Shown one piece after another: positions 2,920 through 22,547 of a DNA stretch of 22,796 bases. Below the pieces are notes generated by a model. It was not told the origin of the DNA. It saw only the letters and a list, made by a program, of their open reading frames with translations, and made no database searches. A program made the translations under genes and the position numbers. Source of the DNA: a virus; UHGV virus genome UHGV-0317022; one strand, 5' to 3'. The number at the start of each line of letters is the position of its first letter. Within the stretch, counting starts at the first letter, position 1.

Positions 2920-3789
<870 letters not shown>

Positions 3790-4321: not shown

Positions 4322-4681
4322 ATGTTAACGCCGTTTGGTAAGACAGTAAGAAAAATGCGCATAGACTTGGGGCTTACGCTTAAAAGCATGGCTGAGGCTA
4401 TGGGCATGACCTCGTCTTATCTTTCAGCGATCGAAACTGGTAAAAGGGCGGTCACTAAGCCCGTGCTTGATAGCATCATTAGCTATTTTAATGCGGATGA
4501 AAAACAAAAAGAAAAGCTTATCAGTGCAGCTCGTGACTCTCAGCAGTCAGTAGAGATCAGCTTGTCAGGTAAGAATGGCCACGCTCGTGAAGTCGCAATT
4601 GCGTTCGCTCGTAGTTTTGATGAGTTAAATGAAGAAGACTTCCGTAATTTACGACAGATTTTGAATCGAAAACAGCAGTAG
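4322..4681 (+). CDS. XRE-family helix-turn-helix transcriptional regulator
   Basis: 119 aa with the HTH signature LGLTLKSMAEAMGMTSSYLSAIETGKR. GGAGAAG lies upstream of the ATG, and the stop is 8 nt before the next gene. Confidence 0.8.
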   Translation: MLTPFGKTVRKMRIDLGLTLKSMAEAMGMTSSYLSAIETGKRAVTKPVLDSIISYFNADEKQKEKLISAARDSQQSVEISLSGKNGHAREVAIAFARSFDELNEEDFRNLRQILNRKQQ

Positions 4682-4689
4682 GAGGCGGC

Positions 4690-5640: not shown

Positions 5641-5760
5641 TGGCGGGAGTTGAAACCGCAGCCACGTCGTATGCAAGAACGTGCTGCGGTTGGCTGGTGA
5701 ACTTCCGATAGGGCGAGTATTGAATGATTTACAGCCGTTATTGATTTTACATATTTTTTG
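5641..5760. repeat. ~115-bp repeat element, copy B
   Basis: AAACCGCAGCCACGTCGTATGCAAGAACGTGCTGCGGTTGGCTGGTGAACTTCCGATAGGGCGAGTATTGAATGATTTACAGCCGTTATTGATTTTACATATT; direct repeat of 3868-3985 with a few substitutions. Confidence 0.6.
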
Positions 5761-7899: not shown

Positions 7900-8203
7900 C
7901 CTGCTTGATTCGCACAGAACGCTGTTAGCAATGTCCGCTCCTCGCTCATAACAGACATTAACTACAGTTATGGTAGAAGGTATGCATGCTGGGTGGGGAA
8001 AGTATGAAGGAAAAGAAGACTGCTGCGCCGTTTGTCGTCACATTTATCTTCATTGGCTATGCAAGTCATAATACAAGGTGGGACAAAACTGAGACACATA
8101 AGGCCTCACAATGGCTTGCAAGGCTTTACATGTTTTGATGTGGTGGGACGTGTGAGCGCAGTGTTGATGGGGTAATACTTTGAATTAGAAGCGGATTCTT
8201 ATA

Positions 8204-8249
8204 ATTCGTAATGCGAAGGTCGTAGGTTCGACTCCTATTATCGGCACCA
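8204..8249 (+). other. Partial tRNA-Thr(CGU) 3' fragment (anticodon loop to CCA), att core of an integrative element; not a complete tRNA
   Basis: ATTCGTAATGCGAAGGTCGTAGGTTCGACTCCTATTATCGGCACCA matches the 3' 46 nt of E. coli thrW-type tRNA as I remember it. The upstream sequence cannot form the acceptor or anticodon 5' strands. Confidence 0.7.
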
Positions 8250-8340
8250 TTCTAACGTCTCCCCAAGTCTACTCAAGTATTTAAAAACCTCTTATAATCC
8301 GCATGTTAGCGCCCCTTTTAGTCTTTTGACGTCTACTTAA

Positions 8341-8413
8341 GTACCCCAAAATCTACAGTCAATTGGGGGTACTTTTAGGGGTATTTGCTGTTCGGTTTAG
8401 TGGAGGTACCCCC
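8341..8413. promoter_or_regulatory. Putative integrase arm-type binding sites / int promoter region
   Basis: GGGGGTAC-type motifs in both orientations: GTACCCCAAAAT (8341-8352), GGGGGTACTTTTAGGGGTAT (8365-8384), GGTACCCCC (8405-8413). A near-identical copy of the 20-mer lies at 22528-22547. Confidence 0.5.
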
Positions 8414-8415
8414 AA

Positions 8416-9630
8416 GTGAAACTCAATGCCCGTCAAATAGACACTGCCAAGCCAAAAGAGAAGGCTTACAAGCTGGCTGATGGTGGTGGTCTGTATCTCC
8501 TGGTAAAACCTAGTGGAGGAAAATACTGGCGCTTTAAATATCGTGTAGCTGGTAAAGAGAAGCTGTTAGCACTAGGTGTGTATCCTGAAGTTACCTTGGC
8601 TGATGCTCGTGCAAAACGTGAAGAAGCTAAAAGGGGTATCGCTGGGGGTATCGATCCGATGGAAGCGAAACGAGAGGAAAAGATTGCCCGGGAAACGCAG
8701 TTAAACAATACCTTCAAAGATATTGCCCTTGAGTGGCACAGCAGCAAATTAAAAAAATGGTCTGCTGGTTATGCTTCAGATATCCTCGAAGCCTTCAACA
8801 AAGATGTGTTCCCTTACATTGGCAAAAAACCAATCGCCGAAATCAAACCACTTGAACTTCTGAATGTGCTGCGACGCATCGAGGGGCGCGGTGCTACAGA
8901 AAAAGCCAAAAAAGTGAGGCAGCGGTGCGGGGAAGTTTTCCGCTATGCAATAGTCACTGGTCGCGCAGAGTATAACCCTGCCCCAGATCTTACTAGCGCG
9001 ATGCAAGGCCATGAATCTAATCATTATCCTTTCCTCACAGCCAAAGAATTGCCTGATTTTTTCAAGGCATTGTCCAGTTACTCAGGAAGTGCATTGGTTG
9101 TTATGGCGGCTCGTCTACTGATTATCACTGGTTTGCGAACTGGCGAACTGCGCGGTGCATTATGGGATGAAATCGATCTCAACAAGGCTATCTGGGAGAT
9201 ACCTGCTTCACGGATGAAAATGCGTCGCCCTCATGTGGTGCCTTTGTCTAAGCAGGCTCTTTCTCTTATTGGGCAGATTAAAGAATTAACTGGTAATTAT
9301 CCGCTTATGTTTCCCGGCCGTAATGATCCAAGGAAAACAATGAGCGAGGCTAGCATAAACCAAGTATTTAAACGCATCGGCTATAACGGAAAGGTTACTG
9401 GTCATGGATTCCGGCACACCATGAGCACGATTTTACATGAGCAGGGCTATAACACCGCGTGGATAGAAACGCAGCTTGCACACGTTGATAAGAACTCAAT
9501 TCGTGGCACGTACAATCATGCGCAATATCTGGACGGGCGGCGCGAGATGCTCCAGTGGTACGCCGACTATATGGATTCGCTCGAACATGGCGGTAACGTG
9601 GTGCATGGCAAGTTCGGAAAATGTGGATGA
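8416..9630 (+). CDS. int: P4-type tyrosine integrase
   Basis: 404 aa with the N-terminus MKLNARQIDTAKPKEKAYKLADGGGLYLLVKPSGGKYWRFKY typical of P4-family integrases. GTG start with GGAGG 9 nt upstream; sits immediately downstream of the tRNA-derived att core. Confidence 0.9.
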   Translation: MKLNARQIDTAKPKEKAYKLADGGGLYLLVKPSGGKYWRFKYRVAGKEKLLALGVYPEVTLADARAKREEAKRGIAGGIDPMEAKREEKIARETQLNNTFKDIALEWHSSKLKKWSAGYASDILEAFNKDVFPYIGKKPIAEIKPLELLNVLRRIEGRGATEKAKKVRQRCGEVFRYAIVTGRAEYNPAPDLTSAMQGHESNHYPFLTAKELPDFFKALSSYSGSALVVMAARLLIITGLRTGELRGALWDEIDLNKAIWEIPASRMKMRRPHVVPLSKQALSLIGQIKELTGNYPLMFPGRNDPRKTMSEASINQVFKRIGYNGKVTGHGFRHTMSTILHEQGYNTAWIETQLAHVDKNSIRGTYNHAQYLDGRREMLQWYADYMDSLEHGGNVVHGKFGKCG

Positions 9631-9758
9631 CTGGTTGCGTATACAGTAGTAGACTTTGAGCGACGAAAGAAAAGGCTGTGTCTAGGGTCGCTCCCGAAAA
9701 TCCGTACACCTCGACGGACTGGTACAGCCACTACAGTAGAGGACGCTGAGGTGTGCGT

Positions 9759-10556
9759 ATGATTGATATTCATGCCGAATTAAACGAATACAAAAAAGAT
9801 TTTATTTCTTTACGTGAATTTCTTGAGGTCGTGCTTAAGGTCGCTGGTGATGATTATGATGTTTCAGATGTCATAACTTGGATACTCAGGAGAATAAGCG
9901 GAGAACATATCCGCCTGTACACAGTAAATGAATTTAAGCTGTTGGAATCTTTTTGTAACCCGTATCGGGATGAATTTGATTATGATGTTCTTTATAGAAA
10001 TCTGAATGCGGTTCGGAAACGTGGTTGTTTACCTGGTGAGAGGGATGAAAATGGTTTTCTGGTGTCCGGTTATTGGGAAGATCCCGAATTTGAGAACATT
10101 GGATTTATAAGGGGTGAAATTTTCGCAATTTTTCCCGATGTCCTTGACGCGTTAACGAAGCTGGAAGGCGCTAACTCTTCTGAAAATGACGAGGCACAAG
10201 GACGCGATATTGAAAAGAAAGAGTTGCGTACAGAGGATGATTTATTATCCCAAATCGCAATGCTGGAAAAAGAAAACGCAGAGTTAAGGGCAAGGATAGA
10301 GCAGTTAGAGCAAGAGCGCCCGATACACTTATATAAATACTGGGATAAAGACCCATTAGCTAAGGCTATTGAGATTAGAAACAGAGAGTGGGCCAATTAC
10401 GATCCAGAAAATGATTTTGCCACTAGGGGAAATCAAGAAGCGATAACCAGGGAGCTTAAGCAGTGGGGGGCAAGTAATGCACTTGCAACGCTCATAGAGA
10501 GGACTGCCTGCCCTATTAACCGAGACAACAGCCAAAAGAACGCAAAGCCGGATTAA
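9759..10556 (+). CDS. Hypothetical acidic coiled-coil protein
   Basis: ORF with GAGG 8 nt upstream of ATG 9759 (the track start at 9753 is a GTG). Contains a charged coiled-coil-like segment LLSQIAMLEKENAELRARIEQLEQE. Confidence 0.55.
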   Translation: MIDIHAELNEYKKDFISLREFLEVVLKVAGDDYDVSDVITWILRRISGEHIRLYTVNEFKLLESFCNPYRDEFDYDVLYRNLNAVRKRGCLPGERDENGFLVSGYWEDPEFENIGFIRGEIFAIFPDVLDALTKLEGANSSENDEAQGRDIEKKELRTEDDLLSQIAMLEKENAELRARIEQLEQERPIHLYKYWDKDPLAKAIEIRNREWANYDPENDFATRGNQEAITRELKQWGASNALATLIERTACPINRDNSQKNAKPD

Positions 10557-10570
10557 CGCACCATACCGCA

Positions 10571-10714
10571 TACCCTGAGGGTGATTTACTGTTACCCTGA
10601 GGGTATTTTTTTATCTTCCCCGTCAATTTTACCATCACCCTTAGGGTAGATTTCCTCCCGATTACCATCACCCTTAGGGTTAATTTCCTTCCGGTAACCA
10701 TTAGGCCTGAGGGT
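10571..10714. promoter_or_regulatory. Cluster of five near-palindromic CCCT(G/T)AGGG sites upstream of alpA
   Basis: TACCCTGAGGGT at 10571-10582 and 10593-10604, CACCCTTAGGGT at 10637-10648 and 10669-10680, GCCTGAGGGT around 10704-10714. The two CACCCTTAGGGT copies sit in a longer direct repeat TACCATCACCCTTAGGGT(A/T).ATTTCC. Confidence 0.55.
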
Positions 10715-10783
10715 ATGAAAATATTCGTTATTTCTGTGCCAGGATTACCTCGTCAAATTGAGTAGACGTTATGAGGTAAATAT

Positions 10784-10981
10784 ATGTCAAATACGCTTAT
10801 TCGTTTAACAGAAGTTCAGCGTAGAACTGGATATAGCAAGGCATGGATTTATCGCCTTATGGGGCAAGGTAAATTTCCTGCATCAGTTAAAATTGGCTCG
10901 CGAGCTATTGCTTTCGTTGAGAGTGAAATTGACGAGTGGATTAATCAGCGTATTGCGGAATCACGCGGAACAGCTACCTGA
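10784..10981 (+). CDS. alpA: AlpA-family transcriptional regulator (excisionase-like HTH)
   Basis: 65 aa: MSNTLIRLTEVQRRTGYSKAWIYRLMGQGKFPASVKIGSRAIAFVESEIDEWI, the characteristic AlpA signature. Confidence 0.85.
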   Translation: MSNTLIRLTEVQRRTGYSKAWIYRLMGQGKFPASVKIGSRAIAFVESEIDEWINQRIAESRGTAT

Positions 10982-11058
10982 TTAAATGGCTACGGGGCTA
11001 TTTCCCCCAGCTATCCACCAGCAAATAAAAGTAACTTAATTCGATAGCAGGAGTTTTT

Positions 11059-11859
11059 ATGAAATTTCCAAAAACGCCCGTACAGGGGCGGGGCTTCGTT
11101 CGGCCTGAAAACCAGAATCTGCAAAATTTCGGCGAAATTATCCCGATTATTTCCGGCGTTATTGGCGGGAGTGAAACCACTATTGTTAGCGCCAGAGCGT
11201 TACATAAGGCGTTAGGTGTAGGGCGCGTTTTCCGTTCGTGGATCAAGGGGCGCATTGAAGAATACGGGTTCACGGAAGGCGTGGATTATGAGGTTGTTGA
11301 ATATTTGAGCCGCCCCGATCCGGTGAGCGCAAAATCTCGCCAGCAAACCGCTCTTGAGTACATCATCACAGTGAACATGGCGAAAGAACTGGCGATGGTC
11401 GAACGTACCGAACAGGGCCGCGCCGTTCGCCAGTACTTTATCAAATGCGAGGAGGAGCTACACAAGGTTGCGCCTGTTCGTTCCGCAGCGTTACGCCGGG
11501 AACTGAAAGCCCGTATCACAGTTGCCAGCTACTTTAAGCCAATGTGTGCCGCGCTGGAGGCGTACCGGGCTGAACTGGGTAAAAACACACTCCAGCACCA
11601 CTACACCACGGAAGCGAACATGCTGGCGCGTATCGTACTGGGTGGCATGACTGCAAAACAGTGGGCACTGGCGAACGGCATTACAGGCGAACCACGCGAC
11701 CACATGAGCACGTTGCAGCTTGAGCACCTTTCTTACCTTGAGCAGAGCAATATCACGCTGATTGAGTTAGGCCAGGACTACCACCAGCGGAAGGCTGAAT
11801 TAATTCGTCTTTCGCAGCGTTGGTTAGCCCGTCGCATGGAGGAAAACAGCCATGTGTAA
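11059..11859 (+). CDS. AntA/AntB-type antirepressor-domain protein
   Basis: N-terminal SARALHKALGVGRVFRSWIKGRIEEYGFTEGVDYEV fits the AntA-domain pattern. AGGAG lies 6 nt before the ATG. Confidence 0.6.
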   Translation: MKFPKTPVQGRGFVRPENQNLQNFGEIIPIISGVIGGSETTIVSARALHKALGVGRVFRSWIKGRIEEYGFTEGVDYEVVEYLSRPDPVSAKSRQQTALEYIITVNMAKELAMVERTEQGRAVRQYFIKCEEELHKVAPVRSAALRRELKARITVASYFKPMCAALEAYRAELGKNTLQHHYTTEANMLARIVLGGMTAKQWALANGITGEPRDHMSTLQLEHLSYLEQSNITLIELGQDYHQRKAELIRLSQRWLARRMEENSHV

Positions 11860-13159
11860 CGCTCTGACCGTTACAAAAAGAGAAAGCGCCCCGTTGCCGG
11901 AGCGCCTTTGTGAACGAATAGCCTACTGCGCCATATTGCTTACTGTCTACGAGGCAGATTATAGCGTTGTGGTCGCACAGAGTGAAGGCGCTGATCACCG
12001 TTACTACAGCACGCCAGAAATGCAGAATATTTTGCTGCAAAATGTCGTTGGTCACACTGTCCGGAAAGCAAAAAATTTTGCTGGTGGCGCGACTGATGCG
12101 ATTTTGTCAGGTCGCCAGGTGCTGATCAATCTGATGTCTGATTTCGTTCTGGATAAAACAAAGGCGACCGCAGAGGGCCGCCAGTGGGAAAGCTACATAC
12201 TTGAACGCATCGCCAACAATGCCAGATTTGCGGCTGGTGGGCAATGTGTCAGCTTTGCACCAATGACTCTATGTTTAACTGAGGGTCATTATGGTGAATA
12301 TGCTGGCTTGCTGGTGGGCTATTCCTGCTCTTTAACATTGCCATGCCGCGATGTTTTCCAGGTATGCGACCCCATTTTTGTGCGCCTGTACTCTTTAAGG
12401 AATTTCTCAAGGATAAACGCACAGGGCGCGAATCTGTTTGACTCATGCTCGTACGCTATCTTTCTGCGCTGTCTTTTCCGTGCCGGTGATGGTGTATTGG
12501 TTGATTCTTTGTTGGTCATGGCGCAGCCCTGTAAAACGATGCACCGTAGTTCCTCACACCACGGCGCTGGTGATGGTTACTCCTGTTCTTTGGCCTTGCG
12601 GCGCTGGCGGTATTCAACTTCTCGCTTTAATGCTGCTGTTACAAACTGCCCTGTACTTTCACCAGGCATTTTTACCGCCTCAACATTGTTCATAACTTCA
12701 TGCGGAACCCTTGCCGCAACTGTTTGTGATTTTGCGTTTACTGCTTTTGTCGCCATGTTGTGTACCCCTTACAAAAAACAAATGCAGTATGCAGGAAAAA
12801 AAATAAGTGTTCAACACTTGACGTGTTTAACACCTGGGCTTAAATTGGTGTTCAACACCTTGTTGATGCAAGGTGCAGAAACGACAACGCCCCGCAGTGG
12901 TGGCACACATGCAGGGCGTCTAACCACCAACGATAGCAAGAGTATCGAGGTAGCTATGAGAAATCATACCACACACCCGCAAGGGCGGGACTCGCACAAC
13001 CTGAATAAATACATCTGGCGTTTTATCGCCCTGAGCACGGCACAACCGCGCGTAATTCACATCGAGGCCACCAGCGAACAGGAAGCACGCCAGCAATCTC
13101 CTGATGGCTGCGTGATGGTATTCGCAGCCCGTATTCGCCAGGAGGTGGAACATGTGTAA
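11852..13159 (+). CDS. Open frame of 435 codons; probably not one protein (N-terminal ~130 aa plausible, middle looks non-coding)
   Basis: The start overlaps the previous stop (ATGTGTAA). The N-terminal ~130 aa look protein-like, but the middle translates as low-complexity C/S/T-rich sequence and crosses an AT-rich promoter/operator region. A possible frameshift or missing stop cannot be resolved here. Confidence 0.3.
   Translation: MCNALTVTKRESAPLPERLCERIAYCAILLTVYEADYSVVVAQSEGADHRYYSTPEMQNILLQNVVGHTVRKAKNFAGGATDAILSGRQVLINLMSDFVLDKTKATAEGRQWESYILERIANNARFAAGGQCVSFAPMTLCLTEGHYGEYAGLLVGYSCSLTLPCRDVFQVCDPIFVRLYSLRNFSRINAQGANLFDSCSYAIFLRCLFRAGDGVLVDSLLVMAQPCKTMHRSSSHHGAGDGYSCSLALRRWRYSTSRFNAAVTNCPVLSPGIFTASTLFITSCGTLAATVCDFAFTAFVAMLCTPYKKQMQYAGKKISVQHLTCLTPGLKLVFNTLLMQGAETTTPRSGGTHAGRLTTNDSKSIEVAMRNHTTHPQGRDSHNLNKYIWRFIALSTAQPRVIHIEATSEQEARQQSPDGCVMVFAARIRQEVEHV
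12319..12519 (-). CDS. Small basic protein (66 aa), possible regulator
   Basis: Minus-strand ORF MTNKESTNTPSPARKRQRRKIAYEHESN...; looks more protein-like than the overlapping plus-strand frame. Confidence 0.3.
   Translation of the reverse strand: MTNKESTNTPSPARKRQRRKIAYEHESNRFAPCAFILEKFLKEYRRTKMGSHTWKTSRHGNVKEQE
12576..12756 (-). pseudogene. Small DNA-binding-like protein gene with an apparent +1 frameshift
   Basis: ATG at 12756-12754 with AAGGGG upstream gives MATKAVNAKSQT, then a stop after 19 codons. The adjacent frame continues VAARVPHEVMNNVEAVKMPGESTGQFVTAALKREVEYRQRRKAKEQE to a stop at 12578-12576. One extra A near 12718 would explain the break. Confidence 0.3.
12805..12860. promoter_or_regulatory. 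Divergent promoter/operator region with three GTGTT(C/T)AACAC sites
   Basis: GTGTTCAACAC (12807-12817), GTGTTTAACAC (12823-12833), GTGTTCAACAC (12848-12858). A sigma70-like -35 TTGACG (12818-12823) and -10 TAAATT (12841-12846) with a 17-bp spacer overlap the sites. Confidence 0.5.
12956..13159 (+). CDS. Small hypothetical protein (67 aa), first gene of a coupled small-gene operon
   Basis: GAGG 5 nt upstream of ATG 12956; MRNHTTHPQGRDSHNLNKYIWRFIAL... Lies downstream of the promoter/operator region. Confidence 0.45.
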   Translation: MRNHTTHPQGRDSHNLNKYIWRFIALSTAQPRVIHIEATSEQEARQQSPDGCVMVFAARIRQEVEHV

Positions 13160-13376
13160 TGCAACATGGCCTGATGCAGCGGTAGACGCTATCAAAACGC
13201 TGATGGATTCACTTATTGAGATTTCTGCTATCGCTGGTGTGGCGCATAAACACGCAGCCAGAGAATCAGAATGCATCTCCCATTATTTAGCATTTGTGCA
13301 GCTAAAAGCCGATCAGGCACTGGATAAGGCCGGAAAAATTATCATGGCTGATGTGCAGGAGGTGCACCATGCATAA
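13152..13376 (+). CDS. Small hypothetical protein (74 aa)
   Basis: Start overlaps the previous stop (ATGTGTAA); compact phage-like gene packing. Confidence 0.45.
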   Translation: MCNATWPDAAVDAIKTLMDSLIEISAIAGVAHKHAARESECISHYLAFVQLKADQALDKAGKIIMADVQEVHHA

Positions 13377-13734
13377 CCTGTCAATTTCTGACCTTAACAG
13401 CATTCAGTTTGACGAGAAATTTACCGGGCAGTTGCTGGTCAATGTGGAGAACGGGCGCATAGTGCGTAATTACCACCTGCCGGATGGTGCAATTGCCGGA
13501 AGCGTTGAAGCATTGCTGGAACTGGCGGAACGTGCGCGACTGATTAAGCCGTCAACGAGCCATCACGATGATGATCTGCATTTTACCGGGCGTATGGTGA
13601 GTCACTACGAAAACGGCGTTGAAGTATCCCGCGAACGGCTGCGTGATGATTGCTGTTTCGGCACACTGCCGGAATTTATCGAGTTGCTGACCAGTTGCGG
13701 TTATCAGGTCATTCAGGGGGGTAAACATGCGTGA
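13369..13734 (+). CDS. Small hypothetical protein (~121 aa)
   Basis: ATG 13369 preceded by GGAGGTG; overlaps the previous stop (ATGCATAA). The track start at 13351 is upstream of this likely start. Confidence 0.45.
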   Translation: MHNLSISDLNSIQFDEKFTGQLLVNVENGRIVRNYHLPDGAIAGSVEALLELAERARLIKPSTSHHDDDLHFTGRMVSHYENGVEVSRERLRDDCCFGTLPEFIELLTSCGYQVIQGGKHA

Positions 13735-13960
13735 TGATCGTTTTAATTCCCTGAAACGGGAATTTGATGGCGCACCGGAAGATGCAGCGGGCGCATTGTT
13801 GAGCGTTGCTGACATGATGAAAGCTGCATATTTTCTTATCAATACCAGTGGCTACAAGTCAGAGGGTGAAATGATTCTTAGTATTGCGTCGGACTATGCG
13901 GAATATGTGGCAGAGACGCGTTACAGAAGAAAATTCACGGAGGATGTAAGCCATGCATAA
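13727..13960 (+). CDS. Small hypothetical protein (77 aa)
   Basis: Start overlaps the previous stop; acidic protein. Confidence 0.45.
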   Translation: MRDDRFNSLKREFDGAPEDAAGALLSVADMMKAAYFLINTSGYKSEGEMILSIASDYAEYVAETRYRRKFTEDVSHA

Positions 13961-14153
13961 TCATGAAGCGCATGTACCCGTAGTGCTTAATGTGCCAGAT
14001 GATTTCACCGGACGCGTACTGGTTTACCTGGATAAAGGGAAAGTGAAATCACAATGCCGACTGAAAAGTAATGAGATTGTTGGTTCTCCTGAATTTTTTT
14101 CTGAACTTTGTATTCGTGCGGAAATAAAACCGGAACTGCTGACAGGAAAATAA
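13953..14153 (+). CDS. Small hypothetical protein (66 aa)
   Basis: GGAGGATG upstream; start overlaps the previous stop. Confidence 0.45.
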   Translation: MHNHEAHVPVVLNVPDDFTGRVLVYLDKGKVKSQCRLKSNEIVGSPEFFSELCIRAEIKPELLTGK

Positions 14154-14157
14154 AACC

Positions 14158-14448
14158 ATGAAAAAGAAAAATTCTGGCTTTACTGCCAGCGGCCTCTCTC
14201 GGCCTGAAATCCGCCCCGGTGATATTTCCCGGGACACCAGACGCGGGGGACGGGTGGTTATTCGTCACGTTACGCCAGGCAATATCACCTACCGCCGTGA
14301 GGCTTACGAATATGACTGCGTAATGCCGCGCCGTCAGTTTGATCGTGATTTTATTCTGGTGGAAAACAAACAACAGGCAGTGGCGAGACGTGCAGCCACG
14401 AATATTAAAAAAATCCGGGCAATGTTGGTTGCGGGAGGTAAGAAGTGA
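14158..14448 (+). CDS. Small basic hypothetical protein (96 aa)
   Basis: ORF immediately preceding the primase gene; its stop overlaps the primase GTG start (GTGA). Confidence 0.45.
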   Translation: MKKKNSGFTASGLSRPEIRPGDISRDTRRGGRVVIRHVTPGNITYRREAYEYDCVMPRRQFDRDFILVENKQQAVARRAATNIKKIRAMLVAGGKK

Positions 14449-16250
14449 AAAACGCACCGAGTCTAAAATATCAGCCGAAGGATAAATTCACTGAGGTAAT
14501 CATTTTTGCCGGGACGGATGCTTACGCCCATGCTCAACACTGGATTGAAAGTGAAGGACGAAAACACGGCGATAACGTGCCTCCTGTTTACCTGGGGCCA
14601 AAGCAACTGGCAGACCTGGCGAATATCCGCATTATTGACGAGAAACGCCGTTTTGCGCGTGTCTATATCGCGGGGGAGATAGAGCCAATCCAGATCAATA
14701 CTATCGCTGAAAAGCTGGCGCTGGCTGGCGTACAGGAGGCGAAATTATACAAAGGTATCACCGACCAGGAACCGGAGAACTGGCGCGACTACCTGCAACG
14801 GATCCGCGAACAGGCTGAGCACGGGGAAGTTTCAGTGATGAAATTAGCTACAAAAAATAGTGGTCTACCCAAGCCTGCATTAAATCAGATGGGAGCCAGC
14901 CAGAGAGGGGAAGTGTTACTTGAACATTATGGAGGAGCACTGGCGATAAATGATGATTCTGATGTAGTTCACCATTACAACGGAATTGTTTGGGAGCCTG
15001 TATCTGATAAGGAACTCCAGCGGTCTATGGCGAAGATTTTTATTGATGCCGAAATTAGTTATTCGCAAAACGCCATTAAATTTGCCGTAGAGACAATGAA
15101 ATTGAGTCTACCTGTTATGGGGGGAGCGGACAGAAATCTTATTGGGTTCAGTAACGGTGTTTTTGATATCAGGACAGGAAATTTTCGGGAACACAACAAA
15201 AATGACTGGTTGTTAAATGCCAGTGAATTACCGTTCAGCCCGCCAGAAGAGGGGGAAACGCTGGCAACACATGCGCCGAATTTCTGGAAGTGGTTGCGTC
15301 GTTCGGTGGCGGATAATGCTCGTAAAGCGGATCGCGTACTGGCGGCATTATTCATGGTACTGGCGAACCGGTACGACTGGCAGTTATTCCTTGAGGTAAC
15401 GGGGCCGGGCGGAAGCGGTAAAAGTGTGATGGCGGAGATTTGTACCATGCTGGCGGGTAAGGCCAACACAGTATCGGCAAGCATGAAGGCTCTGGAAGAC
15501 GCAAGGGAACGCGCGTTAGTAGTTGGCTTTTCGCTGATTATCATGCCGGATATGACTCGCTACGCTGGCGATGGTGCAGGAATTAAGGCAATTACTGGCG
15601 GCGACAAGGTGGCAATTGATCCGAAACATAAAGCCCCCTACTCCACACGTATTCCGGCAGTAGTGCTTGCGGTAAACAATAACGCCATGTCATTCAGTGA
15701 CCGAAGCGGGGGGATCTCGCGTCGTAGGGTGATATTTAATTTCTCTGAGGTCGTACCGGAGAACGAACGCGATCCCATGCTGGCGGAAAAGATAGAAGGC
15801 GAACTGGCGGTAGTGATTCGCCATTTGCTAACACGATTTACCGACCAGGACGAAGCTAAAAGACTACTTTATGAGCAGCAAAAATCAGAAGAAGCGCTGT
15901 TGATAAAGCGCGAAGGTGATTCACTGGTGGACTTTTGCGGCTATCTGATGTCGTTGGTTAAATGTGAAGGAATGATGGTGGGCAATGCGGAAATAGTGCC
16001 ATTTAGCCCGAGGCGATACCTGTATCATGCTTATTTAGCCTATATGTCAGCGCATGGCCTGGGAAAACCAGTATCACTGACACGCTTTGGTACTGATATG
16101 CCAGGAGCTATGGCGGAATACGGAAAGGAGTATAAGCGGGCTAAATGCACTAAAGGCCCGGATAAAGGGCGAGTGATAACAAATGTTCTGTTAGATGATG
16201 ATGCTGATGGCTGGTTGCCAGCAGCTACAGGGATTAACGACAGAACATAA
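14445..16250 (+). CDS. Replication primase-helicase (P4 alpha / D5-like, SF3-type NTPase)
   Basis: 601 aa with Walker A VTGPGGSGKSVMAEI and a Walker B-like hhhhPD segment. GGGAGG 6 nt before the GTG start; followed directly by an iteron-containing origin, as in P4/PICI replication modules. Confidence 0.85.
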   Translation: MKNAPSLKYQPKDKFTEVIIFAGTDAYAHAQHWIESEGRKHGDNVPPVYLGPKQLADLANIRIIDEKRRFARVYIAGEIEPIQINTIAEKLALAGVQEAKLYKGITDQEPENWRDYLQRIREQAEHGEVSVMKLATKNSGLPKPALNQMGASQRGEVLLEHYGGALAINDDSDVVHHYNGIVWEPVSDKELQRSMAKIFIDAEISYSQNAIKFAVETMKLSLPVMGGADRNLIGFSNGVFDIRTGNFREHNKNDWLLNASELPFSPPEEGETLATHAPNFWKWLRRSVADNARKADRVLAALFMVLANRYDWQLFLEVTGPGGSGKSVMAEICTMLAGKANTVSASMKALEDARERALVVGFSLIIMPDMTRYAGDGAGIKAITGGDKVAIDPKHKAPYSTRIPAVVLAVNNNAMSFSDRSGGISRRRVIFNFSEVVPENERDPMLAEKIEGELAVVIRHLLTRFTDQDEAKRLLYEQQKSEEALLIKREGDSLVDFCGYLMSLVKCEGMMVGNAEIVPFSPRRYLYHAYLAYMSAHGLGKPVSLTRFGTDMPGAMAEYGKEYKRAKCTKGPDKGRVITNVLLDDDADGWLPAATGINDRT

Positions 16251-16277
16251 TACGAAATTTATAAGCTGAAACGTAAA

Positions 16278-16613
16278 GGTAGACGGTTGGTAGACAGATA
16301 CACTTAACCCTCTACCAACCATCTACTAATTAATGTTTTGAATTATATAGGTATTTTTAATGTGGTAGAGAGGTGGACAGTTTATTTTATATTTCTAAAC
16401 CACGGGGGGGTATATAAAAACAGATAGTTATGGGTTCATTTTTAAAATTTTTATTTTAACTATCTACACTGTCTACTATTTATTAAAAATCATTAATTAT
16501 CAATGTATTAATACGGTAGACAGTTGGTGGACAGTTTGCAGATTGTTTTTTTGTTATATGTTAATAACATTAAATAAATCAATCAATTATATCGGTAGGC
16601 AGTTGGTAGACAG
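16278..16613. repeat. Iteron-type replication origin
   Basis: At least five copies of GGTAGACAGTTGGT(A/G)GACAG-like 20-mers in both orientations (16278-16297, 16311-16327 inverted, 16363-16380, 16461-16478 inverted, 16514-16533, 16594-16613), separated by AT-rich spacers, directly downstream of the primase-helicase gene. Confidence 0.7.
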
Positions 16614-16621
16614 TTGTAACG

Positions 16622-17164
16622 ATGGGGCAAAGCATGACAAAGCTGACCATTAACAGAAAACCGAAAGGCATTTACGGCACGCCGCAGAAAACGATGCAGG
16701 CGGCGCAGCAGCAGGATAAAACCACATCGGCATATAAAGTGATGCCCGGTAACCAGAACGCGCAACAGAAGCCCACAGGGGCGACACCGTGGCGGCATAT
16801 GACCAAACGCCAGCGCAAAAACCGCAGACGCGTTAACCGCCTCACTGAGTTATGGCCAGAATTATTCAGCCGGGAAGCACCGAAGCCGCTTAAGGTGGGG
16901 ATATTCGACGACCTGCTGCAGGATCTCGCCGTCAGGGGGCTGGCATTCGCTCTAGGGGCATTGCGTGCGACGCTGGCATCTTATGCACAGTGTCCGCGCT
17001 ATTACCGCGCCTTAATGGCTGGTGGGGTACGCTACGACCTGAAAGGCCAGCCGTGCGGCGAGGTGACACCACAGGAACAACAGGACGCAGAAACGCGGCT
17101 GGTGGCGCTGAATGAGAAGCGCAAACGTCAGCGCCGGGCAGCAAAGGAGAAAACAGGCGCATGA
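16622..17164 (+). CDS. FinO/ProQ-domain RNA-binding protein
   Basis: LTELWPELFSREAPKPLKVGIFDDLLQDL ... RYDLKGQPCGEVTPQEQ parallels the E. coli ProQ N-terminal domain (PLKIGIFQDL ... RVDLDGNPCGELDEQH) as I remember it. Confidence 0.7.
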   Translation: MGQSMTKLTINRKPKGIYGTPQKTMQAAQQQDKTTSAYKVMPGNQNAQQKPTGATPWRHMTKRQRKNRRRVNRLTELWPELFSREAPKPLKVGIFDDLLQDLAVRGLAFALGALRATLASYAQCPRYYRALMAGGVRYDLKGQPCGEVTPQEQQDAETRLVALNEKRKRQRRAAKEKTGA

Positions 17165-17448
17165 TTCACGACAGTAAAGCCGAAGCACTGGAAGCGCGTG
17201 GTCTGTACCGGAGAGCGGCGGCGCGGTGGGCTGAGGTCATTATGCTGGCGAACGGTGACAAGGCACGGGAACAGGCGGCAAAACGTCGAGCGGAATGTAT
17301 CCACAAGGCAGCACGCCCGCCAGTAAGGCAGGATAATTTCGGGGAGATGCGCGACACCATCAGCCGGGCACATGCCGGGATGGGATTACATCAGCCCAAT
17401 GGTGAGGCATTCAGGAAATACCCTGGATCGAAAAATTGCAATCAGTGA
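17161..17448 (+). CDS. PerC/Pch-family transcriptional regulator-like protein
   Basis: 95 aa starting MIHDSKAEALEARGLYRRAAARWAEVIM, which resembles the PerC/Pch N-terminal signature from memory. Start overlaps the previous stop (ATGA). Confidence 0.55.
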   Translation: MIHDSKAEALEARGLYRRAAARWAEVIMLANGDKAREQAAKRRAECIHKAARPPVRQDNFGEMRDTISRAHAGMGLHQPNGEAFRKYPGSKNCNQ

Positions 17449-17649
17449 CGGAGGCCGGGATTTTTCCCGGCTTTTTTGTGCCAGTAAAAAGCCCGCAGCC
17501 AGAAGTGTTGCGGGCTTTGTTTTTCAGGTGATTGAAGTCAATGGGAAGAACGCGATCATCATGCGTTATCGTTTCATAAATTGCAATGATATAGATCGTC
17601 ATTTCAGTTTATGCAATCATAACCATTGTTTTGTTCAGGAGGTATGACT

Positions 17650-17823
17650 ATGAGAAAAGCCAGCGTGAAACCCGTTTTACTCGCTCGTGATCAGATTGAA
17701 GCATTACAGCGCATCCAGGACGAGGAACGCCGCAATTCTCCGCTGGGGATTGCTCCGAGTATTCATGAGGTCGCCCGACGTTTAATGCAGCGGGCGCTTT
17801 ATCCCGTAGAACGTCCGGCCTGA
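17650..17823 (+). CDS. Small hypothetical protein (57 aa)
   Basis: AGGAGG 7 nt upstream of ATG 17650 (MRKASVKPVLLARDQIEALQRIQDEERR...). The track ORF starts earlier, at 17626. Confidence 0.45.
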   Translation: MRKASVKPVLLARDQIEALQRIQDEERRNSPLGIAPSIHEVARRLMQRALYPVERPA

Positions 17824-17862
17824 TGGTCGTGATTTTTTGGTGAAAAAAGAGAGGTAGTAACA

Positions 17863-18447
17863 ATGCCAGCAAGCAAAGAAGATTTGCGATTAAAACTGAT
17901 GGAGGTGGTTAACGCTCTGTCAGAGTCGCAGGGCAGCACTCCGCAGGAGATTATCGAAATGCTGAATGCGATCCCCGCGCAGGATTTCACAAAAGCGGAC
18001 GAGGATAACGCTAATCAAAACATCGTCGCGTCAGTCGAAGATGAATCCTCACTGGCAGAAGCCCAGGCTAAAGCGGATTCCGCATACAGCAATATGGGCC
18101 GTCGCGCTCCGGCCCCGTTTGCTGGCGAAAAGTCGATGGATTACCGCAAGCGCGCATTAATTGGCGCACAGAGGATAGCGAAAAAATTCAGAGATGTGGA
18201 TATTCGTTCCGTTTCAGATTCTGCAACGCTGGCGGTGCTGGAAGATCAGATTTACAAGGCTGCTCAGGAAAGTGCTCAGTGGGCCGTGGAAAACACGCCG
18301 GGCCATTTGGGTAAAACCGTAAGAATGGATGAAGCTGGTCGTCGTATTACTGAATATCAGGGCGATCCGAACGTCTGGCTGAACGCCTTCAAAATCCCTC
18401 CCCGTCGCCTGGTCAAAATTAACGTTGCAAGCCTCTCGGGGGCATGA
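17863..18447 (+). CDS. Hypothetical protein (194 aa), possibly capsid/packaging-associated
   Basis: GAGAGG upstream of the ATG; no family recognised. Its position between the regulators and the TerS-like gene suggests a morphogenesis or interference role, but that is inference only. Confidence 0.55.
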   Translation: MPASKEDLRLKLMEVVNALSESQGSTPQEIIEMLNAIPAQDFTKADEDNANQNIVASVEDESSLAEAQAKADSAYSNMGRRAPAPFAGEKSMDYRKRALIGAQRIAKKFRDVDIRSVSDSATLAVLEDQIYKAAQESAQWAVENTPGHLGKTVRMDEAGRRITEYQGDPNVWLNAFKIPPRRLVKINVASLSGA

Positions 18448-18511
18448 AAAACGTGCTGATTTCAGCCCTGTCGGATTTGGCGGGGCTTATTTCTTATAAC
18501 CGGATAACATT

Positions 18512-19183
18512 ATGCTTTTAACAGAAATTGAGGCTGCAAAGCAAATTCGGGACGGTCAGCTACCGTCGCCTTATCAGTTTTCCAACATGTGGCTGGTTAA
18601 CCTGCGTATTACAGGAACCGGTATGGCCTACCGCGCCGAAGAAAAAGAATTTGTCTGGCGTTCACCGCAAACTTATCTCAATCCGCAGTTCCTGGAACGT
18701 TGCGCCGGAGTACCCGTCATCATCGACCATCCCGAAAGCAAAACCCTTGAAGACGTGGGCGAACGGTCGCGCATTATTGGCACCGTCATGTTGCCGTATA
18801 TTCGCGGTGACGAGGTGTGGGGCGTATGCCGGATTTACGGGCAGGAAATCATCGATTACATCCAGAAAGCCCGGGGGGAGGTATCCACCAGCCCGTCGGT
18901 TGTGTTTTGTGGTGCGTCCGGTGGGGCAGAAGTTCCTGATGTAATGGGCGAGGACAATTTTTTTATTGAGGGTACACCATTTCTTATCGATCACGTTGCC
19001 CTCGTACCGTTGGGCGTATGGGATAAGGACGGGAAACCATCGGGTGTGGAGGTAACAACGCCGACAGCAGAAGAGCAGCTTGCCGGAATGGTCCGGGACG
19101 TTATTGATGCAGCCTGCAAGCCAGCTCTGGAAAAACTGGAAGAAATATCCGGGCGGCTGGCTCAACTGGAAAAAGAAGGGTGA
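18512..19183 (+). CDS. Hypothetical protein (223 aa)
   Basis: Uninterrupted ORF in operon context with the downstream HTH protein; no motif recognised. Confidence 0.55.
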   Translation: MLLTEIEAAKQIRDGQLPSPYQFSNMWLVNLRITGTGMAYRAEEKEFVWRSPQTYLNPQFLERCAGVPVIIDHPESKTLEDVGERSRIIGTVMLPYIRGDEVWGVCRIYGQEIIDYIQKARGEVSTSPSVVFCGASGGAEVPDVMGEDNFFIEGTPFLIDHVALVPLGVWDKDGKPSGVEVTTPTAEEQLAGMVRDVIDAACKPALEKLEEISGRLAQLEKEG

Positions 19184-19189
19184 GTCATA

Positions 19190-19717
19190 ATGCTGATGAG
19201 TAAGGCAGAATATGCCAAACACAAAGGCGTAAGCCGCCAGACAGTTTACGACTGGATCGAGAAAGGCGAAGTGATCATGTCTGGCAAAAAAATTGATGTG
19301 GAAGCGACAGAGCAGCGGAACAGCCCACCAGCACAGGGGAAAGACACCATTTCTGAAATGTGGCCAGAAAGAACGCTGGAAATGACGTGGGGCGAGTTCT
19401 GGAAAGCAGTTAAGGCCAGAGGCGGTAAAATTCCTGCGCCAGCAACGGACGAGGGCATACAGCAGCGTGTGCTGGATGCAGCCGGGGAATTAGGCTGGGA
19501 AGTGCACTTTCTTGATGATGGTGCTATCTGCCTTGAGGATGATGAAGGGCAGCATTACTTTGAAAAATACAATTTGCGAGGTAATGCCAGGCTGGCAATT
19601 CGTATGCTGCGTTGCGAACTCTGCTATGTTGCAGGTGATTATGCCGATGAACTGGAATCATGGAGTGAAGCCGGGCTAAACGCCCTAGCTGAATGGGAAA
19701 AATCAGACCATCAATGA
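19190..19717 (+). CDS. Nu1/TerS-like winged-HTH protein, candidate packaging-redirection factor
   Basis: N-terminus MSKAEYAKHKGVSRQTVYDWIEKGEV resembles the DNA-binding N-terminus of small terminase subunits. A repeat cluster follows immediately downstream. Confidence 0.55.
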   Translation: MLMSKAEYAKHKGVSRQTVYDWIEKGEVIMSGKKIDVEATEQRNSPPAQGKDTISEMWPERTLEMTWGEFWKAVKARGGKIPAPATDEGIQQRVLDAAGELGWEVHFLDDGAICLEDDEGQHYFEKYNLRGNARLAIRMLRCELCYVAGDYADELESWSEAGLNALAEWEKSDHQ

Positions 19718-19722
19718 CATCA

Positions 19723-19945
19723 AAAAGTGTCAAGTTGAGCAGCTTGCCAGGTTGACACTTTACACTCTGAACGCGAAAAAGTGTCAACCTCGCTGTAAGC
19801 CGCGCCATTACTGGCCTTTCGCCAGATTTACCACGTCAAAAAGCCGAAAAAATCGCGAAAAGTGTCAAGTTGCCATGCTTAGAAATGCCAGGGGAGGTTA
19901 AGTTTTGTTAAGGTTTTTCCCGAAAAAGTGTCAAGTGTGTCAACC
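19723..19945. repeat. AAAAGTGTCAA(G/C) repeat cluster, candidate packaging-recognition or operator sites
   Basis: AAAAGTGTCAAGTTG at 19723-19737 and 19857-19871, an inverted TTGACACTT at 19752-19760, AAAAAGTGTCAACC at 19776-19789, and AAAAAGTGTCAAGTGTGTCAACC at 19923-19945. Confidence 0.6.
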
Positions 19946-20320
19946 CGCGATATACAGATTTATTAAGGTTTTGAGCCAGAAAGAGTTAACCGCGCCGCTT
20001 TAGAAAACTTCAGGCACGCATTTGTGAAAGCATCAAATGAAGTTCTGTCATACTTTGCAAATCATGCAGATGCATCGTTACTGAGCATTTTAAGTTACAG
20101 TTGATGCGGACTGTCCACTTTAACCTTTCAAAACGTTTCGTAGTAGGTACTAACTAGAATGCCAAGAGTCTTTCAGGTTCCGTGATGTTTAGCGTTGGAT
20201 TTGATATTAAGTGTTTAAATTCAATGTGTTACATTGTGTTATAAAGTTTATTGCTAACAACTGTAGGGTAGATGCCAAGCGCACGCTAAGCATGTTATAA
20301 TCATTTCAACTTTCATAATA

Positions 20321-21316
20321 ATGGATACGAGAGTGGCGACGATAATCAAAAATATAGCAATCAAAGGTCTTTTTAAACGGAAGGACATTGATTGGAGTTT
20401 AAAAGATGTGAATGTTTTAGTGGGTAAAAATGGCTCAGGTAAGAGCACGATAATTCAAAGTGTTTTTGCCCTCTTAAAACAAGAATTAAATGAAAGTTTA
20501 AGTAATGCTGCGTTGGCTCAAATAACATTGGCCAATGGAGGCACAATTACTCACAAAGTTAATTTTCGCGAAATTGACTCTGTCCAGCTTCTAAACCTAC
20601 TTAATAACCTTAAGAAAAACAGTATTAAAGGTAAATCAAAGGGTAAGGAAATAAAGGAGTTAAATGAACTTATTGAGTTGCTTGAATCGAAAAAAGAAGA
20701 CACTGAAATTAAAGAGTTCGGGATGGGAACTGTTAGCGTAAGTGATAATATTAAAAACACTAAGCGAATAAATGTTGAGTTAATATCAACTATCAATATG
20801 AGTGCCAATTCCATCTATGAATTCAAAAAAAGTGATGGTGAGCGCACCACAATTCTTGATATGGAAATTGCTGGTGAATTAGAAAGGTTAAAGAATACTT
20901 TCAAAGTAAGTGAGTCTAAAGGTATTCTCATAAAGGATAAGTTGGAATCAGCTATAAATAATTTATTTGCTGAATGTAACAAAGTTGTTTCTTTTAGTAA
21001 TGGTAACATTTCTATTAAGATGAGTGATTCTGGTGAAGATATTAGGTATAATCTTCTTTCATCAGGTGAACGTCAGTTGTTATATATTCTGATTAAAACA
21101 GCTAATACTTCATTGGATGAATCTGTCTTGTTGATGGATGAGCCAGAAATATCCTTGCACCTTACGTGGCAAGAAAGATTAATAAGCACCATCAAATCAA
21201 TTAACGATAATTGTCAGTTAATTATTGTTACTCATAGTCCTGCAATATTAATGAAAGGCTGGATGGATTCTTTCGTAGATATAAAAAATATTTCAAAGGA
21301 ATCTTCTCATGACTGA
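20321..21316 (+). CDS. ABC-type ATPase (AAA_21/AAA_15-like), ATPase component of a two-gene OLD/PARIS/AbiL-like cassette
   Basis: Walker A VGKNGSGKST, ABC signature-like LSSGERQLLYIL, Walker B LLMDEPEISLH, H-loop VTHSP. The gene is visibly AT-rich and its stop overlaps the start of the downstream TOPRIM-like gene. Confidence 0.8.
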   Translation: MDTRVATIIKNIAIKGLFKRKDIDWSLKDVNVLVGKNGSGKSTIIQSVFALLKQELNESLSNAALAQITLANGGTITHKVNFREIDSVQLLNLLNNLKKNSIKGKSKGKEIKELNELIELLESKKEDTEIKEFGMGTVSVSDNIKNTKRINVELISTINMSANSIYEFKKSDGERTTILDMEIAGELERLKNTFKVSESKGILIKDKLESAINNLFAECNKVVSFSNGNISIKMSDSGEDIRYNLLSSGERQLLYILIKTANTSLDESVLLMDEPEISLHLTWQERLISTIKSINDNCQLIIVTHSPAILMKGWMDSFVDIKNISKESSHD

Positions 21317-22289
21317 GTTTGAGGATATTAATTTTAGCGAAGAATATCTTCAGGTATATTGTATTATGGCTGGACACAATGGCTTTGTCTTTGTTGAAGG
21401 TCTAAAAGACATTTCTTTCTGGGAAGGCTTATTAAACGATAAAGATAATGATATACGTTTTGATATTTGTAACCCTACCAATAAAGGAACAAAAGGGAAA
21501 CCAGTATTAAAAAAATTCATGAGCCGAGCAAATCGATATGCCATATTTGCAATGGATAGTGATTTTGATTATTTATGCCCTAAAAACAGTACAGACTCAG
21601 AGATAATTTGCAGTAACAAGTTTATTTTTCAAACATTTGTATATTCAAAAGAGAGCATCGAGTTACACCATGAAGTCCTTGAGTATTGTCTTTCTCAAAT
21701 AAAGATCGCTACTGAAATTAAATTCGATTTTACAGCATACATTACAGAGTATTCACGGTTGATCTACCCCGTGCTGAAGAAATTTTTATTGCTTAAACAG
21801 CATCAAGTTAGACTTGATGACTCAGTTTTCCATGAAGCGATTGCTCCTTCTGTGCCACGATTAACGAACCAATTTGTTATCAAAAATGCTGTATTTGAAA
21901 GTATGCAGCAATCTAAAGCGGTTATTGAAGAAAAACTTGATAACCTTATTCAAGATGAATACGATGCTGATAAATTCTATGAGCAGTTATATGATAAAGG
22001 ATTGAGAGAAGATAACGCCTATCAATATATCAATGGTCATTTTTTAGCTGATAGAGTTGTCATGCCTGTCATAAAATCATTGATAGAGCAATTGAATATT
22101 AATGAAACTGCCTTAATAGTCAAACAATGCAAAGATAAACCAACCTTAATCTCGGAAAGAAAGAGTGAGCTAAAAAATATTCTTGAAACTGATTTGAATA
22201 TTAATACGCTATTACACTGTTGCAAAGAAAAGTTCAAAACTCCTTGTGCTATTGCGATCAAAGAAAATGTAGCTCGAGCTTTAGCATGA
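21309..22289 (+). CDS. TOPRIM-like (DUF4435-like) putative nuclease, partner of the ABC ATPase
   Basis: N-terminal FVFVEGLKDISFWEGLL (TOPRIM E-G-x-x-D glutamate motif) and AIFAMDSDFDY (DxD motif). AAGGAA 8 nt upstream of the ATG; 8-nt overlap with the ATPase stop (ATGACTGA). Confidence 0.7.
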   Translation: MTEFEDINFSEEYLQVYCIMAGHNGFVFVEGLKDISFWEGLLNDKDNDIRFDICNPTNKGTKGKPVLKKFMSRANRYAIFAMDSDFDYLCPKNSTDSEIICSNKFIFQTFVYSKESIELHHEVLEYCLSQIKIATEIKFDFTAYITEYSRLIYPVLKKFLLLKQHQVRLDDSVFHEAIAPSVPRLTNQFVIKNAVFESMQQSKAVIEEKLDNLIQDEYDADKFYEQLYDKGLREDNAYQYINGHFLADRVVMPVIKSLIEQLNINETALIVKQCKDKPTLISERKSELKNILETDLNINTLLHCCKEKFKTPCAIAIKENVARALA

Positions 22290-22300
22290 CAATGGAAAAT

Positions 22301-22329
22301 AAAAAACCTCATGCCCTTGGGGTTTTTTT
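22301..22329 (+). terminator. Possible weak terminator after the ATPase/TOPRIM cassette
   Basis: AAAAAACC...GGTTTTTTT inverted repeat flanking CCCTTGGGG. The stem is AU-rich, so this is uncertain. Confidence 0.3.
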
Positions 22330-22527
22330 GCTAATTAATTCTGTTCTAACAGAAGGTTATGATAAAACTTTTAAACTGTAGAAATAGAAAACATGACATG
22401 GCCTTCAATAAATTGAAATTTTATTCGTTTGGATATCTTTCTTAATTGACAAAGTGAATGAAGACATAAAGCTCTTAAATGAATAGCTTTTATGTTTTTC
22501 CCAGAGTCTAATCATACAGGCGCTTAT

Positions 22528-22547
22528 GGGGGTACTTTTGGGGGTAT
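22528..22547. repeat. Terminal repeat, right copy of the putative integrase arm site
   Basis: GGGGGTACTTTTGGGGGTAT differs at one position from GGGGGTACTTTTAGGGGTAT at 8365-8384. Confidence 0.55.

Follow-up and report, generated by a model that had tools for sequence, protein, structure and literature searches.

The stretch of DNA analysed here, the virus genome UHGV-0317022 (22,796 nucleotides, referred to below as the window), carries an Escherichia coli phage-satellite island of 14.2 kb (8364–22547, plus strand), which is bounded by 21-bp direct att repeats at 8364–8384 and 22527–22547; the core of its attR recurs in relatives. The last conserved part of the island, at its 3′ end, consists of an open reading frame (ORF) for a 175-aa two-domain putative DNA-binding protein with a helix-turn-helix (HTH; 19190–19717, plus strand) and of an array of short boxes immediately after it. 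The entire conserved cis-region, that is, the array with its fixed spacing, covers positions 19718–19991, as delimited by sequence conservation. Judging from comparisons among the loci described below, the protein and the array are a conserved pair across genera.

The N-terminal domain of the protein (residues 1–44, encoded at 19190–19321, plus strand) is a winged HTH (wHTH) of the Nu1/Xis/MerR type. An initial annotation of this DNA had described it as small-terminase-like, and profile searches agree: its top match among phage protein families is PHROG 57 (2.6e-8), which we verified as the family of the lambda small terminase subunit (TerS) Nu1, since the TerS of a CFT073 prophage scores 4.7e-65 against it. 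Authentic RppA of the Escherichia coli phage-inducible chromosomal island (PICI) EcCICFT073, where RppA/RppC act with cos1 (Fillol-Salom et al. 2019, PMC6739421), matches to the same degree (3.9e-8) and at profile positions identical to those matched by the 175-aa protein. The match is restricted to positions 11–57 of the 199 in the profile, corresponding to the first ~45 residues of the protein; homology to a full-length Nu1-type small terminase (PHROG 57/Phage_Nu1), including the TerL-binding C-terminus, was not found, and the downstream neighbours of the HTH gene are AriA and AriB, not terL. In the AlphaFold model (54-sequence alignment, pLDDT 88.8), the wHTH is followed by a disordered linker (residues 45–55) and an alpha/beta domain (residues 56–172, confident over 60–172). 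The wHTH is near-invariant throughout the family, with the pattern MLMSKAEYAKHxGVSRQTVYDWIxKGEVxxSGxKIDVEATE. The C-terminal 120 aa have no match in Pfam, PHROG or NCBIfam, the modelled domain has no fold match in the PDB or BFVD, and phmmer found no PDB sequence matching the protein. A remote search with the C-terminal domain returned 17 cluster representatives among 1.84 billion, essentially the family itself; the domain is an orphan alpha/beta fold. None of the 102 homologues of the 175-aa protein found across Enterobacterales carries a functional name. A 226-aa E. coli protein present on 19 contigs (P0070) has an AntA/AntB N-terminal domain fused to the C-terminal domain of this family, replacing the wHTH.

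The array starts 6 bases past the stop codon of the HTH gene with the first AAAAGTGTCAA box (19723–19733, plus strand), which forms an inverted pair with box 2, TAAAGTGTCAA (19752–19762, minus strand, one mismatch). Box 3 (19777–19787) is an exact copy, as are box 4 (19858–19868), which is followed by a second motif, CATGCTTAGAAATGCCAGG, at 19874–19892, and box 5, which lies at 19924–19945 together with an overlapping partial box, GTGTCAACC, at 19937–19945; all are on the plus strand. Thus, exact direct copies start at four positions (19723, 19777, 19858 and 19924). A degenerate plus-strand box with two mismatches, AAAGAGTTAACC (19980–19991), marks the end of homology with cos-bearing relatives. 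The five matches to AAAAGTGTCAA compare with 0.68 expected, and five or more were found in none of 100 shuffles; the at least four direct copies and one inverted copy within ~220 bp that had been reported initially are therefore confirmed, with two degenerate boxes in addition. The boxes follow the consensus (G/A)AAAGTGTCAA(C/G)(C/T), in many cases with CGCG in front, and the second motif, TTAGAAA-N3-4-CAGG or GTTAAGGTTTT, is found after several boxes. Spacing between boxes is 27–81 bp and the GC content over the array is 0.44–0.47. No further box was found elsewhere in the island, and the 7-mer GTGTCAA has a single further occurrence in the window, at a position outside the island. The array region contains no known RNA and has no unusual fold (z = −1.1).

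The association of gene and boxes spans more than 10 enterobacterial genera and persists down to 39% protein identity. A box follows the gene in loci of Escherichia, Rouxiella, Raoultella, Buttiauxella, Pantoea, Lelliottia, Pseudocitrobacter, Enterobacter and Mangrovibacter. A reverse scan of IMG/VR viral contigs with the box pair alone as the query (20 specified bases) yielded 139 loci, of which 121 encode the family gene. In 110 loci, no more than 60 bp separate the stop codon from the first box, and in eight others the boxes are just upstream of the gene; the latter constitute a distant subfamily, HTH209, which retains the recognition helix SRQ..Y.W. Box arrays without the gene at three loci (L045, L047 and L059), from AT-rich phages of unrelated hosts, were set aside. 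The co-occurrence of gene and boxes is not independent of common descent; it covers two clades that differ in box arrangement, plus a third group in which the position relative to the gene is another. Counted from the stop codon, boxes start at 8 (+), 35 (−), 62 (+), 143 (+), 199/209 (+) and 254 (+) in clade A and at 20 (−), 48 (+), 102 (+) and 229 (+) in clade B, and the spacing is conserved inside each clade. Other DNA can lie between gene and array, namely, an ABC-3C defence system in L019, an IS91 insertion sequence (IS) in L010 and another gene in L007. E. coli genomes retain either 19718–19945 or 19718–19991 despite differing downstream cargo. The conserved cis-region (19718–19991) is present in 166 of 5426 complete E. 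coli genomes (3%), and hundreds of Klebsiella, Serratia, Enterobacter and Pantoea assemblies also carry the module. A central non-repeat block of the array, TCGCTGTAAGCCGCGCCATTACTGGCCTTTCGCCAGATTT (19790–19829), has a core, TACTGG..TTT, conserved in clade-A islands; this core (TACTGGCTTT) is shared by clade-A islands from several genera, and the block was not found in the arrays of clade B or HTH209. A 212-kb viral contig from an unrelated AT-rich organism encodes a 457-aa protein with a ...SVSRQTIYT... helix (L103:3633-5275), and three TTGACACTTT/AAAGTGTCAA boxes lie ~200 bp upstream of its gene, which hints that the pairing of helix and box is older than the enterobacterial family.

Repeated boxes next to a wHTH gene may also be operators. 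Under this explanation, which we consider unlikely, the 175-aa protein would be a transcription factor of the MerR/Xis/Cox/BldC type, acting as an autoregulator, a late-operon regulator or a roadblock that shields the cargo against read-through from the island operon once induced. Its wHTH is similar to those of regulators known to bind repeated sites, namely BldC, Cox and MerR-type proteins (PHROG 575, 66), and PGAP labels some copies of the gene 'MerR family transcriptional regulator'. TTGACA is present within each box, and the HTH209 boxes just upstream of the gene are in a position suiting autoregulation. However, a consensus scan of 19000–20500 detected no sigma-70-like promoter at or near the boxes, and hand inspection of the TTGACA-N17 positions revealed no credible −10 element. 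The sole promoter-like site in that interval (20272–20301) is that of the downstream PARIS cargo, 330 bp beyond the last box. The box spacing is unlike that of the tight Cox/Xis arrays, and no box is found elsewhere in the island. Furthermore, the array persists irrespective of the cargo, and in some islands cargo or an IS separates it from the gene. The alternative of the initial annotation, that the repeats are operators controlling the downstream cargo, is disfavoured by the cargo having its own promoter, by a constant array next to varying cargo, by the cargo or IS between gene and array in some islands, and by the upstream position of the HTH209 array.

The rest of the island bears on two further functions that such an array could have, replication and recombination. 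A P4-type integrase (8416–9630) is followed by an int-alpA RNA (Rfam, 45.5 bits; 9675–9742) located between int and the next gene, by AlpA, an AntA-domain protein and a 435-aa protein with an Icd-like C-terminus, and then by DUF4222 and a D5-type primase-helicase (14445–16250). Two tandem 33-bp repeats (88% identical; 10629–10694) ~90 bp upstream of alpA are probably the alpA control region. Directly past the primase gene, the segment 16262–16615 has 30% GC and at least four double iterons, GGTAGACAGTTGGTRGACAGTT, in both orientations, and is the replication origin (ori) of the island. Further on come ProQ/FinO, PerC, two DUF2213/PHROG 6216 pieces, the HTH gene, the array and PARIS. The initial placement of the element in a phage satellite is supported by the att repeats, int, alpA, the primase and the ori. 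More specifically, the island has the features of a PICI-type satellite: a length within 10–20 kb, att sites, int, alpA, pri-rep with ori, unidirectional organization and no complete virion set. By the standards of P4-like satellites, sid, psu, delta and epsilon were not found, nor was a P2-type cos in the window.

Since the island has an ori with its own iterons after the primase, the AAAGTGTCAA array is a separate cis element, and the array as a replication origin was rejected given the GGTAGACAGTT iterons directly after the primase. A broader version of this idea, in which the array would be an iteron-like replication, copy-control or maintenance element to which the protein binds, whether a second cis replication region comparable to P4 crr, a P1 incA-like handcuffing locus or a centromere, appears improbable to us. 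In its favour, the central block is identical at 27 of 28 positions to a site in a P1-like plasmid replication origin (L173:3001-3028), where it lies between a GATC-rich stretch and the iterons; more than 300 P1-like plasmids have this site in their origin. The same block also resembles a site located upstream of antB in Stx/933W-like phages (L002:3501-3540), with 88% identity over 41 nt. Nonetheless, the island already has its ori, with different iterons, beside the primase-helicase. The boxes are not tandem, the array has neither an AT-rich unwinding element nor a DnaA box, and the 175-aa protein is unrelated to plasmid RepA, whereas an iteron replicon would have a Rep_3-type initiator. The plasmid-shared block is, moreover, absent from the clade-B and HTH209 arrays.

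The recombination alternative would make the protein an excisionase (recombination directionality factor) and the boxes its arm-type sites. The fold of the wHTH is compatible with such a role, which is nevertheless very improbable. The distance from the array is 2.6 kb to attR and 11 kb to attL, AlpA is already encoded next to int, and the protein, at 175 aa with an extra domain, exceeds the 50–90 aa of excisionases. It also falls outside this class (HTH_17, TIGR01764; small single-domain wHTH proteins with att-adjacent sites) by score, with 19.7 bits for HTH_17 under a cut-off of 27 bits.

Two ORFs upstream of the HTH gene are relevant to conjugative mobilization. A 65-aa ORF (17626–17823, plus strand) is found together with the HTH gene in most related islands, those of the HTH209 type included (tblastn synteny), and may thus be part of the module; it has no family match and appears ribbon-helix-helix-like by eye. 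Together with the ProQ/FinO protein of the island, it is what could be expected if the array were an origin of transfer (oriT) with accessory DNA-binding proteins and the island were mobilized by a conjugative element. In addition, the core of the central block, TACTGGCTT, presumably resembles the ColE1 nick region, TATACTGG/CTTAAC. We hold this possibility to be slight, because no relaxase is encoded, the putative nick dinucleotide is not conserved and the block is missing in clade B. A plasmid search recovered no homologue of the 175-aa protein, only one irrelevant HTH-only match. The other island genes are phage-related, including a DUF2213 head protease homologue and, in relatives, tail-related genes. 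The DUF2213 gene belongs to segment 17863–19183, in which two adjacent ORFs match the 545-aa PHROG 6216 profile in swapped order (positions 402–544, then 115–328). The second ORF, DUF2213, is 54% identical to a head protease/scaffold gene of phage Rac-SA53, and the segment is a split or permuted helper head gene within the satellite. The helper inferred from this gene, pointing to the Rac-SA53 head module with Terminase_2 and Terminase_6N, was discarded as uninformative on the module, because the gene is present in only some islands.

The initial annotation had called for a search for a cos site near the array, and none of the lambda or P2 type was found in the window: no GGGCGGCGACCT (lambda cosN) is present with fewer than three mismatches, and the best window match to a P2/P4 cos profile (nhmmer) has E = 1.9 and lies outside the island. 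Across the relatives, by contrast, a search for the P2/186-type cohesive-end sequence gave matches well above chance. Among the 31 clade-A relatives with enough downstream sequence, 10 have a P2/P4-type cos 0.5–1.8 kb downstream of the HTH gene on the same strand (nhmmer, E 1e-13 to 1e-21). These sites are homologous to the P4 genome ends, flanks included (GCAcyTGCATkAAAA ... GGCGTGGCGGGGAGAGyAy TGCGCG), and for that of L068, matching cos regions are found in Yersinia 186-like phages and Erwinia ENT90, which are P2-like. In cos-bearing relatives the gene is followed by the array, a 59-aa ORF, ~190 bp and cos, and then by cargo and attR; in L019, cos is situated between gene and array. No phage match was obtained for the clade-B post-array region, and no circular or cos-ended forms were found among the metagenome contigs inspected. 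Immediately after the array, Klebsiella relatives have a 144-aa DUF5681 gene, which is small-terminase-like and the phage homologues of which abut or overlap the large terminase gene; unlike in these relatives, no small-terminase-like gene follows the boxes in the window. The Klebsiella relatives lie within a prophage late region. Islands inside prophage late regions, with a capsid gene fragment after the island or tail sheath genes starting right behind it, were observed in L174-L176 (Klebsiella), L062, L070 and L094, and these embedded relatives duplicate helper baseplate and tail genes (Dit-like, baseplate hub and tail-fibre-assembly-like). L062 had been considered as a phage late regulator ahead of tail genes, an idea that was rejected since it is an island embedded beside prophage tail genes.

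In the window, the array is followed by the PARIS cargo, with AriA at 20321–21316 (PADLOC 2.6e-43) and AriB/DUF4435 at 21309–22289 (3.6e-22) and a GC content of ~0.32 versus ~0.50 in the island. The array is 88–93% identical to the arrays of cos-bearing relatives up to 19991, at which point homology stops and the PARIS cassette begins. Nineteen complete E. coli genomes, O104:H4 and 55989 among them, share this configuration of array and PARIS. The sequence between array and cargo (19991–20106) resembles the clade-B post-array sequence, and TTAAGTTACAGTTGATG (20090–20106) recurs at the left edge of variable cargo in five clade-B islands (L014, L015, L017, L018 and L020). Thus, by its sequence, the island looks recombinant at the cargo boundary. 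The segment with cos appears to have been replaced by the PARIS cargo, an event that may have immobilized the island. Given the lack of cos in the window and the break of homology at 19991, the window copy would be the recognition half without a recognizable cleavage site; the island may be transfer-defective or reliant on something not recognized here.

Taken together, we tentatively propose that the array and the 175-aa protein are a DNA-packaging recognition module of the satellite, a reading that we prefer although we would not call it established. Of the packaging-hijack module proposed in the initial annotation, the conserved pair of protein and boxes, its location in the slot of rppA/cos and the cos or TerS-like gene in some relatives speak for the idea; the assignment to the Rpp or TerS family did not hold, and the window has no cos. 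Several points weigh against a packaging function. The fold of the wHTH is common to excisionases, Cox, BldC and MerR regulators, and the C-terminal domain resembles neither terminase nor Rpp domains. Homologues of the protein are missing from all phages of the collection, and neither a lambda- or P2-type cos nor another recognizable cleavage site is present in the window. The identity of the central block to a plasmid origin site, noted above, belongs here as well. A recognizable cos is present in none of 45 clade-B relatives and is missing from two thirds of those of clade A; given this low frequency among close relatives (one third), cos may be a component of the exchangeable cargo region and not of the module. 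Our confidence is kept below even for these reasons, that is, the scarcity of cos in close relatives, an HTH shared with regulators and excisionases, and an uninformative C-terminal domain.

If the packaging reading is right, the module could work as follows. A helper phage would switch on the island operon, with the 175-aa protein made last. Its Nu1-like wHTH would then bind the boxes, occupying five to seven spaced copies beginning with the inverted pair right past the stop codon, and boxes and protein would form a nucleoprotein complex. The divergent C-terminal domain presumably contacts a packaging protein of the helper, by which the helper terminase would be brought to the satellite DNA; binding to the boxes, contact with the helper and the packaging role are all inferences. 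In close relatives, the complete module would comprise gene, array, 59-aa ORF and P2/P4-type cos, followed by cargo and attR. A more far-reaching version, possible but doubtful in our view, is that the proteins constitute a new widespread family of satellite packaging-specificity adaptors, unrelated to Rpp beyond the HTH, in which an invariant Nu1-like head binds a multi-box site and a fast-evolving C-terminal domain plugs into different helper machineries. The partners under this version, which we put forward with similar reserve, would be a P2-type cos in some islands and the TerS-like protein in the Klebsiella islands embedded in helpers, with that of clade B left unspecified.

Further observations concern the surroundings of the island. 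Just left of attL lies the 3′ fragment of a tRNA-Thr gene (thrW-like, ...GGTTCGACTCCTATTATCGGCACCA; 8197–8250), and tail-fibre genes of another element are found further left; thus, the island and a prophage remnant are arranged in tandem at the CP4-6 locus. In L001, paoD and ykgJ are on the right side of the island. Defence genes are also present outside the island, encoding PD-T4-3 (2920–3744, minus strand; 8.8e-140) and a PD-T7-1-like protein (6481–7899, plus strand; 2.8e-69). A 103-nt direct repeat (91% identical; 3881–3983 and 5653–5755) brackets an HTH_3/M78-peptidase gene pair (4322–5211), and a full-length match to the Rfam IS009 RNA (225.7 bits; 2609–2807) lies inside a tail-fibre assembly gene region.

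To our knowledge, the packaging of Gram-negative PICIs has been worked out mechanistically only for Rpp with a lambda-type cos. If the module is a packaging determinant, it would represent a second, structurally different solution and would link PICI-type islands to P2-like helpers. The adaptor family, if real, would explain how many enterobacterial PICIs without rpp and lambda cos are packaged. The question also bears on the spread of defence cargo such as PARIS, and the 12-bp box and the 175-aa protein are a defined pair that is directly testable.

Among known systems, P2 Cox and BldC are wHTH proteins that bind arrays of direct repeats, as the 175-aa protein is predicted to do, but they are single-domain proteins (50–90 aa) acting on tightly phased repeats at promoters or att sites, whereas the protein described here has two domains and its boxes are 27–81 bp apart. 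Satellite P4 and relatives of the island have in common int and alpA, a primase of the D5/alpha type, an Icd-like domain and a defence hotspot adjacent to cos (PMC9122126), and the cos of these relatives is homologous to that of P4/P2. The island differs from P4 in having no sid, psu or delta and, in the window, no cos, whereas P4 has no module of HTH protein and boxes. As in the SaPI (Staphylococcus aureus pathogenicity island) TerS-SP/pac system, a DNA-recognition function is encoded by the satellite and its site lies in or next to the gene, and the Klebsiella relatives additionally have a TerS-like gene past the array. By contrast with SaPI TerS, the 175-aa protein is not a TerS homologue and has no oligomerization core. 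In lambda, gpNu1 has a wHTH from the same PHROG family region, and the R sites of cosB are likewise several ~12-bp copies, an inverted pair plus direct copies, beside the gene; here, however, there is no TerL-binding C-terminus, adjacent terL or cosN.

The closest comparison is with Rpp of EcCICFT073 (reference RppA, L032:2660-3091, verified against 6HLK at 5e-31). Both proteins are satellite-encoded and have an N-terminal Nu1-like wHTH with an equal PHROG 57 score, and in both cases a cis site adjoins the gene. At the right end of EcCICFT073, rppA (144 aa) comes after PerC and capsid-like genes, flanked by one cosN 90 bp upstream and another downstream; the HTH gene occupies the equivalent slot, behind PerC and morphogenesis-like genes at the 3′ end of an island of the int-alpA-pri type. 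BLASTP aligns the 175-aa protein with RppA over 25 residues only, 9 of them identical (36%), all within the HTH, and its C-terminus is alpha/beta, in contrast to the helical coiled-coil (alpha4–alpha6) of RppC. There are five to seven boxes here versus one proposed R3-like site there (PMC9026076), the array is downstream of the gene whereas the cis site of EcCICFT073 is upstream, and no lambda cosQ/cosN adjoins the HTH gene. A tblastn search with RppA against 180 loci and the window gave no match, and the 140 loci bearing the family (1.63 Mb) contain neither an exact lambda cosN nor an RppA homologue, that is, Rpp and the 175-aa family are mutually exclusive in this sample. On these comparisons, the family is best described as a positional analogue of Rpp rather than a member of it. 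The module may be a functional analogue of lambda Nu1/cosB and of EcCICFT073 RppA/cos1 built from a different protein family, although we advance this equivalence with caution. The protein family and the architecture of its site are new, and the task is probably a known one, satellite packaging specificity.
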